A stretch of DNA of 64,000 bases from Eledone cirrhosa. Lineage: Eukaryota. Positions 11,278 to 58,575 of this stretch are shown here, in pieces. Location of the stretch: assembly GCA_964016885.1 (NCBI GenBank), contig OZ024749.1, positions 42,842,001 through 42,906,000 on the forward strand. Reading direction: 5' to 3'. Both the position numbers and the translations under genes were made by a program. The notes below the pieces were generated by a model. The model had not been told where the DNA came from and made no database searches. It saw nothing but the letters and a program-made list of their open reading frames with translations. Every line of letters starts with the position of its first letter. Positions within the stretch are counted from its first letter, which is position 1.

Positions 11278-11412
11278 GATTAAACCAGTATTAAACTAAA
11301 ACCATTATTCAACAGAGTATTGGATACTTGGGATAGCAGATTGTGACAATATTAGAAAAAGTAAGGGGCTCGACGACTGAGCTCTTGCTGTTTCAACAGC
11401 TAGTCCCGACGC
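11278..11412 (-). mobile_element. Divergent family A element (half-HHR, no inverted arm)
   Basis: Minus strand GTCGGGACTAGCTGTTGAAACAGCAAGAGCTCAGTCGTC-GAGCCCC followed by a tail similar to family A. Confidence 0.6.
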
Positions 11413-11421
11413 TTTCTAAGA

Positions 11422-11588
11422 TGTGGTGACGGTGTGACAGGAGTGTAGGTGGTCTTATGTGACGGTGGTGATGGGAGTGTAGGTGGTCTTATGTGACGGT
11501 GGTCTTATGTGACGGTGATGGGAGTGTAGGTGGTCTTATGTGACGGTGTGACTGGAGTGTAGGTGGTCTAATGTGACGGTGATGGGAT
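11422..11588. repeat. ~31-34-bp minisatellite (GTGACGGTG..GGAGTGTAGGTGGTCTTAT) x~5
   Basis: Direct tandem units. Confidence 0.85.
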
Positions 11589-11734
11589 CTTTCCTGTTGT
11601 TCTGCCTGGGGTATAAATACACAAAAAAAACCTCCAAAAAAATTAAACAAAATAATGATGGTAGTGGTGAGAGGAAAGCAAGTGAGGATAGAAAAATAAA
11701 GACAGAAAAAGTAAAAGGGGAAAAAAGAAACATT

Positions 11735-12083
11735 TACATATACACATACATATATCTATACATATGTATACATATGTATATATATATATATATATATATA
11801 CATATATACATACATATATATATATATATATATACATATATATATACATATATATATATATATATATATACATATATATATACATATACATATATATATA
11901 CATATACATATATATATATATACATATACATATATACATATATATATATATACATATATACATATATATATATATATACATATATATATATATATATATA
12001 TATATACATATATATATATATACATATATATATATATACATATATATATATATATACATATATATATATATATATATATATGT
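11735..12083. repeat. (TA)n/(TACA)n microsatellite block
   Basis: Simple repeat; one of dozens in the window. Confidence 0.95.
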
Positions 12084-12283
12084 ATAGGAAAAAGTATGAT
12101 CCCGACGGCAGAGCTCAAGCCGTTTTGACGTCTATTTCTGGGTATGTCCAGAAATAGCCGTCGAAATGGCTTGAGCTCTGCCGTCGGGGTCATACTTTTT
12201 CCTATTTCCCACTCTTCTACCCTAAGTATTGAGTACTCTGGTGCGTTATGGTCCATCTGGTTCCTTACCACAATTCCTTTGTT
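12084..12283 (+). mobile_element. Family A palindromic element in (TA)n (half-hammerhead plus fixed 3' tail)
   Basis: ~58-bp inverted arms around GGGTATGTCC; sense arm GTCCAGAAATAGCCGTC-GAAAT-GGC ttgagctct GCC-GTC-GGGGTC; tail ends CCTTACCACAATTCCTTTGTT then (TA)n. Confidence 0.85.
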
Positions 12284-13021
12284 ATATATATATATATATA
12301 TATATATATATATATATATATATATATATATACACACATACATATATCTATACATATACATATTTACATACACATATCTATACATATGTATACATACACA
12401 CACACGCACACACACATTCATATACACATACATATATCTATACATATACACATTCATATACACATATATGTATGTATGTATATGCATAGATATATGTATC
12501 TATGCATATACATACATACATATATCTATGTATATACATACATACATATATCTATGCATATACATACATACATATATCTATGCATATACATACATACATC
12601 TATGCATATACATACATACATATATCTATGCTATGCATATACATACATATATCTATGCATACATATATCTATGCATATACATATATCTATACATACATAT
12701 ATCTATGCATATACATACATACATATATCTATGCATATACATACATGTGTGTGTGTGTGTGTGTGTGTGTGTGTGTGTGTGTGTGTGCGTGTGTGTGTGT
12801 GTGTGTGTGTGTGTGTTTGTGTGTGTGTGTGCGCGTGTGTGAAGAGAGAAAGAAAGAGAAAGAGAAAGGAAGACGGACGATACAGCTTCGTTCTCTTCTT
12901 TGACATTTTACCTAACTTTTGACATTTGGGGATTTAGTTGTTTTTTCTTGTTAAAAAATGTTTCCTTTTCCATGAGCAGGATACAACCAATAATAATAGT
13001 GATGATGATGATGATGATAAT

Positions 13022-13228
13022 AATGGGTTCTGATTTAAGCACAAGGCCAGCAAATTTGGGAGAAAGGGAAGTCGATTAAATCGACCCTAGTGCATTACTG
13101 GTACTTTATTTTATCGATCCCGTAAGGATGAAATCAAACATAACCTCGACGGGATTTGAACTCAAAATGTCAAGGGCCTTAACTATGCTGCAAAGCATGG
13201 GGTCCGACGCTCTAACGATACTGCAAAT
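13022..13228 (-). mobile_element. SINE family 1
   Basis: Reverse copy with core and head. Confidence 0.8.
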
Positions 13229-54679: not shown

Positions 54680-54864
54680 GGGCGGTGGATTGGCAGTATC
54701 GGTAGAGGGTCGGACGCCATGCTTTCCAGCATAGTTACGTCCCTTTACGATCTGAGTTCAAATCCCGCCGAGGTTGACCTTGCCTTTCATCCTTACGGGG
54801 TCGATAAAATAAAGTACCAGTAATGCACTGGATAATTGCTGGCCTTGTGCCTAAAGTAGAAACA
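54680..54864 (+). mobile_element. Young full-length SINE family 1 with 18-bp TSD
   Basis: ATTATTTCACTCGAGGTT at 54662-54679 and 54865-54882. Confidence 0.9.
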
Positions 54865-55127
54865 ATTATTTCACTCGAGGTTATGATAAAAGTCATTGAT
54901 TCATGTTGCTATATACTTTAGAACCAGACGTCTTAAACCACTCAACTTTTCTTTTGGTTTATTCAAGCAGATCAATGTAATTCACAGTGATATTAACAAT
55001 TGATCACTTACCCAAGTAGTGTGATCGAAACCGCAACAGTGTAGCTTTGAAGCACTCGTCTTAAATTATATAGTGATATTCAATAGCTTCTTTTCATCTA
55101 TTTCTGTAGAACAGTATATTTCACATT

Positions 55128-55308
55128 AATTGTTTTTACTTTTGGCACAAGGCCAGCAATTATCCCAGTGCATTACTGGTACTTTATTTTATCGACCTCG
55201 AAAAGATGAAAGGCAAAGTTGACCTCGGCGGGATTTGAACTCCGAGCGCAGGATGGTATACCGTAAAGCGTTCTATCCGACGTTCTAACGATTCTGCTAA
55301 TTCGCCGC
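55128..55308 (-). mobile_element. SINE family 1
   Basis: Full-length reverse copy about 260 bp from the 54680 copy. Confidence 0.85.
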
Positions 55309-56899
55309 ATTCGCAATTACCAATTGTTCGTTTGATGTTTATTAATTTCTTCACCTTTTACTGTTTGTTCTTATCAGCGACATCTATGTGTAAACTTCCA
55401 TTGACTTATCTGTATTTTATATATTATATCACATTAGATTATATTATGTTGCAATATATAATGTATTACATGGTGTTATATGTTTGTATGCTACATATCG
55501 GCAGCTAGAAGAAAGAAAAAAAAAACAGTTTTCCCATTGGAATATAAAATATAAAGAAAATATAAAATAGTTGTAACAGTTCGATTTTTGTGTTGATATT
55601 TTTTTCTTCATGCTTATAAATCTATAAATTTGATATATATATAAATTAATAAATATGCTTTCGCACAGAGAGACAGTCACATGTCTACGAGGAACACACG
55701 CATACACATTCCTGTGTGTGAAACAAATGGAACGACACCGATTTTAAATACGAAATATACCATTGGTTTGATAATCTGAACTACCTCGTTGAATTATAGT
55801 GTAAATGATTAAATATTCCCATAGGCGCTGACAATACACAACCTTAAACAGGTAGATTATCTATTGATTCCAAAAAGAGTGGAAAGAACTGAAAGAAATA
55901 ACACTTGCCATTTAAGTTGACGTTCTTTTTTAATGGCATGGTATGGACTCATAACGTTGGAGGAAGTCGTAGGGCCATCATATTAAACATACAGTGCTTC
56001 TTAGGACATTTTCTTAAACCGAGCAGAGCCCAGCCCCTCCTCAGGCATAAGTACAGATATCTTCCAGAGAAGGATAGAGAGTGAGAGAAAGGAAATGAGA
56101 AAGAGACATAGAGGAAGAATCAACCTCCAGTACAGGATTGGTACTTTTTTTTATCGACTAATAGGCGGCGAATTGGAAGAGTCAATAGAGTGCTTTGCCG
56201 TATTCGTTCCAGCGCTCTGCTCTCTCAGTTCAAAACCTGCCGAGGTCAACATTTGCCTTTCATTTTTTTAAAATAGAGAAACAAAAATACGACATATTTT
56301 CCCAAGATGCCATGCACTGTAATCGAACAACCTCACATACACATACATAAATATATACCACATATCCACATAGATGCACACCCGCACATACTTAGGACAT
56401 GCATTACCAGGAAAATTAGATCATTATACAGCATATTACAACTCTCTCTTCATATCTAAACAAAATTTGTCTAGAGTCGGAAGCAATAATCAATGAAAAA
56501 TAAATAAATAACTTTTTCTAAAAAGCAACAAAACACAGCAATATTTTAAACGTCTTTTTTCCCCCATTATTTCTTTTACATTTTCGATGTATTCAATTTG
56601 AAATCTCTTAGGCACGACCTTCGCTCATAATGATTTTTATAAAAAAGAAAAAAACATAGCCTATAGGTCTTACATTGTGACGTAGGGAAATAGTTGATTT
56701 TATTGACATCAATATTTATCTATTACCTATTTTAGCAAGATGTAATGCTATCTGGCAGAGCCGTTAGAATGTCGAACAGAATAATTTGTGGTATTCGTCC
56801 CGGTTTTCTACGTTCTGAGTTCAAATCACACTGAGGTCAACTTTTGTATTGGAAGTTTCGAGTTACGTCAACACTAAGCTGGGATTTGAGTCAACAAAA

Positions 56900-57492
56900 T
56901 CATGGTTTCTGATTCAGGCACAAAGCTAACAATTTGTAGGGTGGGGCGAAGTCAATTAAATCGACCCCAGTGCGTTACTGGTATTTTATTTTATCGACCC
57001 CCATAAGGATGAAAGGCAAAGCTAACCTCGGCGAGATTTGAATTCAGAACGTAAAGGACCGACCGTAACTCTGTGCCGCAAAGAATGTTTTCAATAAAAT
57101 AATGGTTTTTGATTTAGACACAAGGACACAAATTCTGAGGGAGGGGAAAGTCGATTAAATCGACCCTAATGCATTACTGGTATTTTATTTTATCGACCTC
57201 GTACGGATATAAATCATAACTCGCCTCGGCGAGATTTGAACTCAGAACGTAAAGGGTCGTAACTCCATGCCGCAAAGCATGTTGCCAATAAAATAATGGT
57301 TTCTTATATAGGCACAAGGCCAACATTTTTTGGGTAGGGGAAAGTCGATTAATTTAACCCCCAGTGTGTCACTGGTACTTTATTTTAACGACCCCGTAAG
57401 GTTGAAAGGCAAATTTAACCTCGGCGGAATTTGTACTCAGATCATAAAGGGCCGTAACTCTATGCCGCAAAGCATATTGCCAATAAAATAAT
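56900..57492 (-). mobile_element. Three tandem 5'-truncated SINE family 1 units (~195 bp each)
   Basis: Each ends GCCGCAAAG.AT.TT..CAATAAAATAATG. Confidence 0.85.
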
Positions 57493-58309
57493 GTAAATAA
57501 TTGGATTACTTTGTAGAATACGGCATTAAAATCAATCAAATCTGGGCTTTGTCAGATACACATTGAATACTTTATGAAATAATTGAACTTCCATCGGTTT
57601 ACTAGTCGTGCCATTTGTCTTTTAACGAGAGAAAAGGTGAAGGCCATTGACCCAATTCTACGTTCAATCATGTCAACTAATTCAAATTTGATAGTTCAAT
57701 AAATTGTTGATGTGCAAAGAACAGATATACATAGACACGTGTAGAAACACCTACATACACACATGCAGGCTAACAACACATACACACACAATAAAAGCAC
57801 CTATACACACATCCATTCCTTTACTCTTTTTCTCTCTTACTTTATCTAACACATATTTCATTTTCATTACTTTCGTTCCATATATTTCGAAATATTTATA
57901 AATCTATAACATTCTCATTCTTAATATCTCTCTCTCTCTTTCTCTCTCTCTCTCTCTCTCTCTCTCTCTCTCTCTCTCTCTCTCTCTCTCTCCCTCTCTC
58001 TCTCTCATATGTATATACTAAATGTGCAAGTGTAATGCGTGTATATATATATATATATATATATATATATATATATATTAGATGTGGACGTGTAATGCGT
58101 ATATATATATATATATATATATATATATATATATATATACATATATATATATATATACACTTACTTTCACACACGCACACACATATATATATATATATAT
58201 ATATATAGGGAGAGAGAGAGAGAGAGAGAGAGAGAGAGAGAGAGAGAGAGAGAGAGAGAGAGAGAGAGAGAGAGAGAGAGAGAGAGAGTGTGTATATATA
58301 TATATATAT

Positions 58310-58575
58310 GACCTCAGCCGTCGGGGTTCTGACTCTTTCCCTATATATATATATATATATATATATTTATATACTTTGGATAGTAGAGTGGGTAATAGGA
58401 AAAGAGTCAGAATCCCGACGGCAGAGTTCAAGCCGTTTTGACAGCTATTTCTGGACTGGCTTGAGCTCTGCCGTCGGGGTTCTGACTCTTTTCCTATTAC
58501 CCACTCTACTACCCAAAGTATCGAGTACTCTGGTGCGTTATGGTCCACCTGGTTCCTTACCACATCTCCTTCGTT
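58310..58575 (+). mobile_element. Family A element with long inverted arm plus a detached fragment (58310-58342)
   Basis: Inverted arm extends to TACTTTGGATAGTAGAGTGGG; sense arm lacks the stem II-GAAA segment; standard tail. Confidence 0.85.

Follow-up and report, generated by a model that had tools for sequence, protein, structure and literature searches.

Inverted truncated copies, a tail, targeting of (TA)n, the Hydra clade and hammerhead ribozymes with a U3-A8 core are all known already from studies on Penelope-like elements (PLEs) and their hammerheads. The Hydra clade is defined by the motifs RW[KR], DKT, CxCx5C, CxxC and CxH (PMC8557442, section 11), and start sites lie within the terminal repeat in Penelope and Chlamys-3 (PMC2377424; PMC8557442, section 10). 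For an anole element, both target strands were cut and extended in vitro, two internal start sites delimiting the tail (PMC11167929), and in a plant retrozyme a whole hammerhead downstream of the start site leads to an untranslatable transcript (PMC12029980). The way in which PLEs form their inverted copies and tails, and the role of the hammerhead, are called open questions in this literature. Here, we describe a 64-kb stretch of the Eledone cirrhosa genome (assembly GCA_964016885.1, contig OZ024749.1, positions 42,842,001 to 42,906,000; hereafter, the window) bearing short, mostly palindromic repeats, or stubs, that contain one half of a hammerhead. By their sequence, the stubs are the ends of a young autonomous Penelope-like element of the Hydra clade, and they probably stop within the hammerhead loop because the capped RNA of the element starts there.

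Stubs and their parent element

The original prediction had listed eight copies of a (TA)n-embedded family that folds back inside a hammerhead and retains only its 3′ half. All eight were found in their places, and none has CTGANGA, as had been claimed, or any other hammerhead 5′ half upstream. Seven of them are tail-out palindromes embedded in (TA)n, and the copy at 11278 is an old single arm. Below, +1 denotes the A of T[TC]AGT in loop II of the hammerhead, which is position 18 upstream of G12; in this numbering, the 3′ ends of the arms fall at two places, +62 (the short end) and +140 (the long end), with a tail of 78 nt between them.

The stubs amount to tens of thousands of genome copies and are strongly non-random. 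In the genome of 3.0 Gb, where all genome-wide counts were obtained by sequence-pattern matching, one exact 25-mer from the arm gave 21,538 matches vs. 0 for its reversed control, and palindromic junctions with at most 60 nt between the arms gave 19,953 exact matches. Individual arms were sampled from 1,364,000 bases comprising the window with ten stretches in its neighbourhood, as well as 120 stretches of 10 kb spaced evenly on four chromosomes. The contigs of four sequencing runs, the kind of which is unrecorded, have a word depth that is far greater in the stub region than upstream of it, a value that is not a copy number, and one of the runs may be the source of the assembly and hence not independent. 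The contigs of runs X5 and X6, from two other organisms, contain at low depth pieces that are 95–100% alike to the element; relatives, contamination and transfer are all possible.

Among the first 30 matches of the 25-mer, the non-palindromic loci have upstream the sequence CCCC-TTGANAA-G, the 5′ strand of stem II and a loop of about 40 nt. The locus L052 has the layout repeat–open reading frame (ORF)–repeat, together with an inverted arm of about 0.8 kb bearing the long end, a partial direct copy and a last repeat stopping at the short end; its ORF (5079–7238) encodes 719 amino acids. This full-length element is inserted in the reverse transcriptase (RT) region of an ORF resembling that of a long interspersed element (L052:985-2175, minus strand). 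A search with the RT region gave 43,972 candidates; all of the 144 that were scored proved to be 99–100% identical, 142 of them without a stop, and because of this we regard the family as young and autonomous. Several ORF matches stand in tandem with a spacing of about 3.53 kb, and arrays with this spacing, each made up of three or four complete ORF copies, were noted at G000:C1:437201077-437212470, C1:91475106-91486533 and C2:51277418-51285274. The RT-encoding element carries the stub sequence as its terminal repeat, thus confirming the Penelope-like origin that had been proposed; the same fact, combined with the intact ORF of the full-length copy, contradicts the proposal of a non-autonomous, retrozyme-like family. 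Identity with non-LTR retrozymes (LTR, long terminal repeat) was rejected too, as tandem whole-hammerhead units lacking a coding master were not what we found.

Pfam and PDB sequence searches with the 719-residue protein gave no match, and a profile search gave one chance hit. The protein has 2,054 homologues, of which the best 120 are 38–54% identical and nearly all unnamed. The best Foldseek match of a model built with 116 homologue sequences (mean predicted local distance difference test score 93.2) was telomerase RT (TERT 3du5, E 1.6e-8); a telomerase-like RT with the motif YRDD is thus present in a single ORF. The RWK/DKT motifs of the Hydra clade were found as RWR at 37 and DKT at 117, its CxCx5C linker as CNCPDRSIC at 572, and the motifs CxxC and CxH of the putative endonuclease as CNLC at 670 and CKH at 698. 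A GIY-YIG-like motif, VIY...YIG, lies at 591–608; Pfam GIY-YIG matched two of ten homologues (one of them below the cut-off) and not the protein of the element itself. For a CX2-5CxxC finger, the pattern C.{2,5}C..C had no match in the protein. Insertion into (TA)n, another trait of the Hydra clade, is seen at L052, where the loose ends at 4908 and 4988 run into TA repeats. Pseudo-LTRs, an inverted 5′-truncated copy and a one-sided tail are all present, judging by the anatomy of L052 and by the 21 of 26 sampled pairs that combine a long and a short end. The placement in the Hydra clade is based on motifs, the likeness to Hydra-1_Obim, an element with a small canonical hammerhead, having been judged by eye from the supplement of PMC8557442.

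The hammerhead of the complete copies

Long copies hold the complete sequence of a type I hammerhead, a predicted ribozyme whose two halves are joined by stem II, and this bears out the claim that the stubs represent its 3′ half. The L052 copy has U3 at 4805, G12 at 4866 and C17 at 4888. The three helices, the G10.1-C11.1 pair and the UH cleavage triplet of a type I hammerhead are all present in the predicted structure; helix III is 5 bp long with a 9-nt loop, and loop II comprises about 40 nt. The core was examined in 50 complete-copy contexts, some of which may represent one copy twice where loci overlap. U3-A8 occurs in 35 of them, C3-A8 in 10, U3-G8 in 2, another combination in 3 and C3-G8 in none, and position 7 varies freely. 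None of the 50 contains CTGANGA, so that the canonical hammerhead of the Hydra clade is absent, and because of this variant core we file the element as a variant of the clade. The mostly U3-A8 core (TTGANAA) and the long loop II also explain why the complete hammerhead was overlooked earlier. Genome-wide, the pattern of the hammerhead 5′ half gave 5,221 matches, mostly TTGANAA, vs. only 21 matches of CTGANGA within 30 nt, all in unrelated junction-like contexts. The master copies with CTGANGA that had been expected were therefore not recovered, and taking the lack of CTGANGA upstream as a refutation would have been misleading, because the master core is mostly TTGANAA. In other words, searches based on CTGANGA miss the element entirely. 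The subfamily with the C3-A8 mismatch (10 of the 50 contexts; L060, L074, L099 and L181) is predicted to be impaired and has still spread, which suggests that cleavage is unnecessary for copying.

The unconstrained minimum-energy fold of L052 is a hammerhead three-way junction. Among seven folded copies, this junction was clear in three, partial in two and absent in two, and the fold energies were not far from those of shuffles (z −0.4 to −2.5). In 20 copies picked from 37 to span the subfamilies, 93% of the cells were paired and four pairs had two-sided changes, three of them in stem II, though relatedness inflates such scores. Rfam returned no hammerhead match for a complete copy, and none for the window among the 150 listed of 329 matches, which were of the microsatellite or hairpin kind and below the gathering score.

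The cut site of the predicted ribozyme lies at +42. Of 50 sampled long-end arms none started there, and in motif-selected loci a single arm of 167 did so, with 10 of 167 starting between +38 and +46. Cleaved linear RNA as a template was rejected because of this lack of accumulated arm ends at the cut site, in agreement with the finding that uncleaved RNA is the main substrate (PMC11167929). Nor does the idea that the master RNA cleaves transcribed copies in trans look promising: the palindromic transcript is predicted to bury its substrate half in a hairpin of −140 kcal/mol, no hammerhead was formed in the co-fold, and trans cleavage of transcribed palindromes is therefore unlikely. As separate strands, the two hammerhead halves are predicted to co-fold into a hammerhead (ddG −11.9 kcal/mol).

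Arm ends and their likely origin

Of the 91 arms in the sample, 80 extend no more than 23 nt upstream of G12 (GAAA), 30 of them ending at 16–18 nt; values of 22–23 nt partly reflect overlap with the partner arm. Just two arms end within the next ~37 nt (at 31–32 nt), and nine contain the 5′ half. The loss per base is about 15 times higher before this cliff than after it, and the BLAST coverage, 85 at +36, is down to 27 at +1 and to 11 another five bases upstream, with a slow decay thereafter. Arms start at +1 in 14 cases, at +2 in eight and at +3 in eight. T[TC]AGT occupies the same distance from G12 in 45 of the 50 complete-copy contexts, though loop II differs between subfamilies; the motif resembles the initiator consensus of insects. 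The turn at stem II claimed by the original prediction is thus stereotyped indeed, but its site is a fixed A in loop II rather than stem II.

The base preceding +1 is T or C in complete copies. Genome-wide, it is G in 5,420 cases vs. A in 890, so that non-templated G is about six times as frequent as non-templated A. At a control position five bases inside, which has a similar AG start, 50 G and 50 A were hand-counted among the first 100 of 1,554 matches. When the cases explained by the partner arm were removed, G was still about 3–4 times commoner than A before +1. Single arms joined directly to (TA)n gave 412 matches (the first 100, hand-counted: T 87, C 8, G 5, A 0), and these are uninformative as a test for the cap because T continues the repeat.

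The 26 sampled pairs comprise 21 of the long+short type, two short+short and three with an intermediate end, and the first 100 arms with the 5′ half include 52 in tail-out and four in tail-in pairs. In 93 of 108 stub pairs, the arms differ by no more than one base in the subfamily-diagnostic stretch, vs. 21% of random pairs; the arms of a pair evidently share their fate and origin. The 108 junctions, taken from sampled and motif-selected loci, are overlapping in 30 cases, blunt in 17 and filled in 61, a range that fits end-joining of two free ends, as we infer. A 6-nt match to the element was found in 23 of 37 fillers, a count without a control, and only the seven matches of at least 10 nt are noteworthy.

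Taken together, these data lead us to propose, with a probability of about 0.6, that the stubs end in the hammerhead loop since the capped RNA of the element starts there, and that they arise by two-site priming on both target strands, run-off and joining. Most probably, the protein of the element would cut both strands of (TA)n, and one cDNA would be primed at each of the two internal sites (+62 and +140) of the 5′ terminal repeat, on opposite target strands. Both cDNAs would run off the RNA 5′ end at +1, in some cases with a G copied from the cap, and the two free ends would be sealed by end-joining that involves trimming, microhomology and short fillers, thereby creating a palindrome. Long copies with the whole ribozyme would stem from priming in the downstream repeat of the same transcript. 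Because a start inside the ribozyme would leave the 5′ copy on the mRNA incomplete and incapable of removing the cap, the front end of the mRNA would stay uncut, the 3′ copy being whole. If the start site does bisect the ribozyme, this explains how a coding element can retain a hammerhead that is competent as a monomer and still not lose its cap to it. The ~20,000 exact-match palindromic junctions, whose arms have a common 5′ wall, two kinds of 3′ end and the cap-like G, may be read as a genomic record of twin priming and run-off. Neither a start site nor a truncation wall inside a ribozyme was found in literature searches, which covered few subscription papers. We would add, as a rather doubtful extension, that cleavage of the 3′ copy and ligation of the ends might yield a unit-length circle, the RNA thereby switching from message to rolling template for the tandem arrays; competition in cis from the 3′ half beside the enzyme strand and the lack of a pile-up at the cut site speak against it. 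A TATA-like sequence at −30, TATTTAAA, was dropped as a candidate, being confined to one subfamily and not conserved in others.

Several points weigh against a capped start at +1. The start site and the cleavage are both predictions from genomic DNA, and the sample includes the window and its ten neighbouring stretches. Reverse transcriptases copy the cap as an extra base, a matter on which our literature search found no paper. At 11 of 30 G loci (vs. one of 30 A loci), the base before +1 could belong to the partner arm as its end, and in the sample G is a minority: the 25 arms reaching +1 are preceded by C in 11 cases, T in nine, G in three and A in two. Moreover, the wall is not absolute, some arms extending 1–14 nt past +1, and for several subfamilies a weak upper hairpin is predicted in loop II, the 3′ base of which falls at +2 to +5. 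Such a hairpin, as well as the arms that overrun the wall by a few bases, would suit a structural arrest, which the original prediction had already put forward: the RNA would start upstream of a whole hammerhead, the RT would stop in stem II, either at its upper hairpin or at a protein bound there, and the arrested cDNAs would be joined. We consider this unlikely, given that the enzyme has by then traversed stems I, III and lower II, which are stronger, that the upper hairpin is short, AU-rich and different between subfamilies whereas the wall position and T[TC]AGT are constant, and that a position-specific excess of G is not predicted.

The template 5′ end could also result from RNA processing rather than initiation, either through a cleavage of the 3′ splice-site type (pyrimidines, then YAG) or by a host nuclease. 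The splice-acceptor-like sequence TTTTCATTTAG, followed by T, and the eight of 91 arms that begin at +3, right after AG, agree with this, as does the intron of the Drosophila virilis Penelope, which ends at the hammerhead (PMC4209133). Nevertheless, the A or G removable by splicing is retained in more arms (14 at +1 and eight at +2), an extra G precedes +1, and a constant upstream exon or leader before the arms was not found, making processing decidedly improbable. Still less credible is the fold-back of a single cDNA near stem II, which would self-prime the inverted arm and end at TTCCTAT by pairing with the (TA)n target. Paired arms do nearly always belong to the same subfamily, the TAT that follows both fixed ends in the element could pair with the target, and 30 of the 108 junctions overlap; but the other 78 are blunt or bear fillers, the short end also terminates, and so would prime, single arms and kilobase-long copies, and both ends match the two-site initiation observed in vitro (PMC11167929). 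In addition, the arms of long pairs differ greatly in length, which the fold-back suggested by the original prediction leaves unexplained; those of L052, about 0.8 kb and 5 kb, have no common mirror centre. As for a miniature inverted-repeat element of a DNA transposon, the palindromic shape and the TA targets would be expected of it, yet the two ends are made unequal by the 78-nt tail, the centre varies, no terminal inverted repeats of a fixed and symmetric kind were seen, and an RT-encoding element carries the sequence as its terminal repeat, which refutes this explanation and leaves it virtually no chance.

Window copies and comparison with known systems

The window contains only stubs and no ORF fragment of the element (Table 1). 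Pairing in seven of the copies had been recognized correctly, but the inverted partner is not of freely variable length, since fixed ends recur: in five of the seven palindromes (12084, 13866, 20515, 24365 and 41359) the long end, TCCTTCGTT, terminates one arm and the second fixed end, TTCCTA, its partner, while the palindrome at 49659 consists of two short arms and that at 58372 has one intermediate arm. GAAAC had been claimed for the copy at 58372, where the sense arm begins after it and the antisense arm alone reaches the GAAAC region, with G12 altered.

Table 1. Arms and junction fillers of the stub family in the window
Position	Strand	Feature
11278..11403	-	old single arm, long end; ~70% identity to other copies
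12084..12141	-	short-end arm covering element +4 to +62, with TTCCTA as its 3′ end
12142..12145		4-nt junction filler
12146..12283	+	long-end arm from element +2: stem II 3′ strand, GAAA, stem III, GUC, stem I 3′ strand, 78-nt tail
13866..13990	-	long-end arm, 4 nt left before G12 after trimming
13989..14033	+	short-end arm; 2-nt overlap with partner
20515..20575	-	short-end arm up to element +1; 100% identity to full-length copy L052
20577..20619		43-nt filler; contains 12-nt copy of element sequence near junction
20620..20757	+	long-end arm from element +2; 99% identity to L052
24365..24502	-	long-end arm up to element +2
24503..24568	+	short-end arm, extends 5 nt upstream of +1; A+1 at 24508
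41359..41419	-	short-end arm, second subfamily, up to +2
41420..41560	+	long-end arm, second subfamily, begins exactly at A+1
49659..49713	-	short arm of short+short palindrome, second subfamily
49710..49758	+	partner short arm of the palindrome at 49659
58309..58344	+	short-end fragment, ninth copy, absent from the original list
58371..58457	-	arm up to A+1, intermediate 3′ end
58458..58575	+	long-end arm from element +24, past GAAAC

Other repeats of the window include hammerhead-like sequences as well. A tail-out palindrome of another Penelope-like family (58644–59005; 363 nt, 94%) has the whole CTGATGA motif in both arms, its centre lying about 80 nt upstream of the core. Because this palindrome keeps the whole motif, palindromes appear to be general here and the splitting of the ribozyme particular to the stub family, as far as one comparator can tell. 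Related short stubs with a minimal CTGATGA...GAAAC motif lie beside (TA)n at 13761–13835 (minus strand), where the stub starts about 8 nt upstream of the core, and at 5098–5164 (plus strand). Hammerhead-like motifs of other families with the canonical core CTGAAGA were noted at 14170–14215 and 29340–29390 (both minus strand), the second also as an inverted pair in L132. Among the sampled loci L109–L307, 27 hammerhead-like motifs with a canonical core were found in 1.36 Mb, belonging to at least six sequence families and including several inverted pairs or tandem copies. Short palindromes without a recognized hammerhead core lie at 53028–53165, 37303–37349, 23017–23113 and 4599–4719. Copies of a tRNA-like short interspersed element are abundant (21025–21200, 23113–23400, 29780–30071 and many more), two of them forming the inverted repeat 23113–23626/29554–30071, and ARAGORN called no tRNA genes in the window.

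The minus-strand strong-stop DNA of LTR retroelements is a short cDNA whose priming site is close to the 5′ end of the RNA and whose synthesis runs off at the cap. In our case, cut target DNA would be the site of priming, and the short products become integrated in the form of joined pairs. Non-LTR retrozymes (bioRxiv 10.64898/2026.07.22.740005) resemble the stubs in being non-coding, related to hammerheads and mobilized by Penelope-like machinery, but they are tandem repeats with a whole hammerhead per unit, whereas the stubs are dispersed inverted pairs with half a hammerhead, matching the end of a coding element. Cercyon of Schistosoma mansoni (Cervera and de la Pena 2014, PMC4209133) shares with the element described here the U3-A8 covariation in a Penelope-like terminal repeat and a palindromic loop III; its hammerheads are minimal and dimer-dependent, in contrast to a helix III predicted to be stable in the monomer and a long loop II in our case.

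Hydra-1_Obim of Octopus bimaculoides, a member of the Hydra clade (Craig et al. 2021, PMC8557442), has in common with our element RW[KR], DKT, CxCx5C, a C-terminal GIY-YIG-like motif, CxxC, CxH, (TA)n and a hammerhead near the 3′ end. However, in File S2 of the same paper, all 26 rows of Hydra hammerheads have CTGANGA, a loop 2 of 3–10 nt and a loop III of 1–3 nt, as compared with U3-A8, ~40 nt and 9 nt here, and the unit length, which is about 3.5 kb here by tandem spacing, is under ~3 kb in the clade. In the parts of PMC8557442 cited here, no stub family ending inside a ribozyme is described.

With endonuclease-bearing PLEs in general, the element shares tail-out inverted pairs, a tail between two fixed ends, AT-rich targets and no sign of cleaved RNA as the main template (PMC8557442, Fig. 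2; PMC11167929). Its tail is longer, 78 nt vs. 30–40 in those elements (PMC8557442; PMC11167929), and the start sites that would delimit it lie in the 5′ untranslated region and not inside the ORF as in the anole element (PMC11167929). What distinguishes it from them is that about nine in ten of its arms are stubs of 60–140 nt that share a sharply defined 5′ end within the ribozyme.

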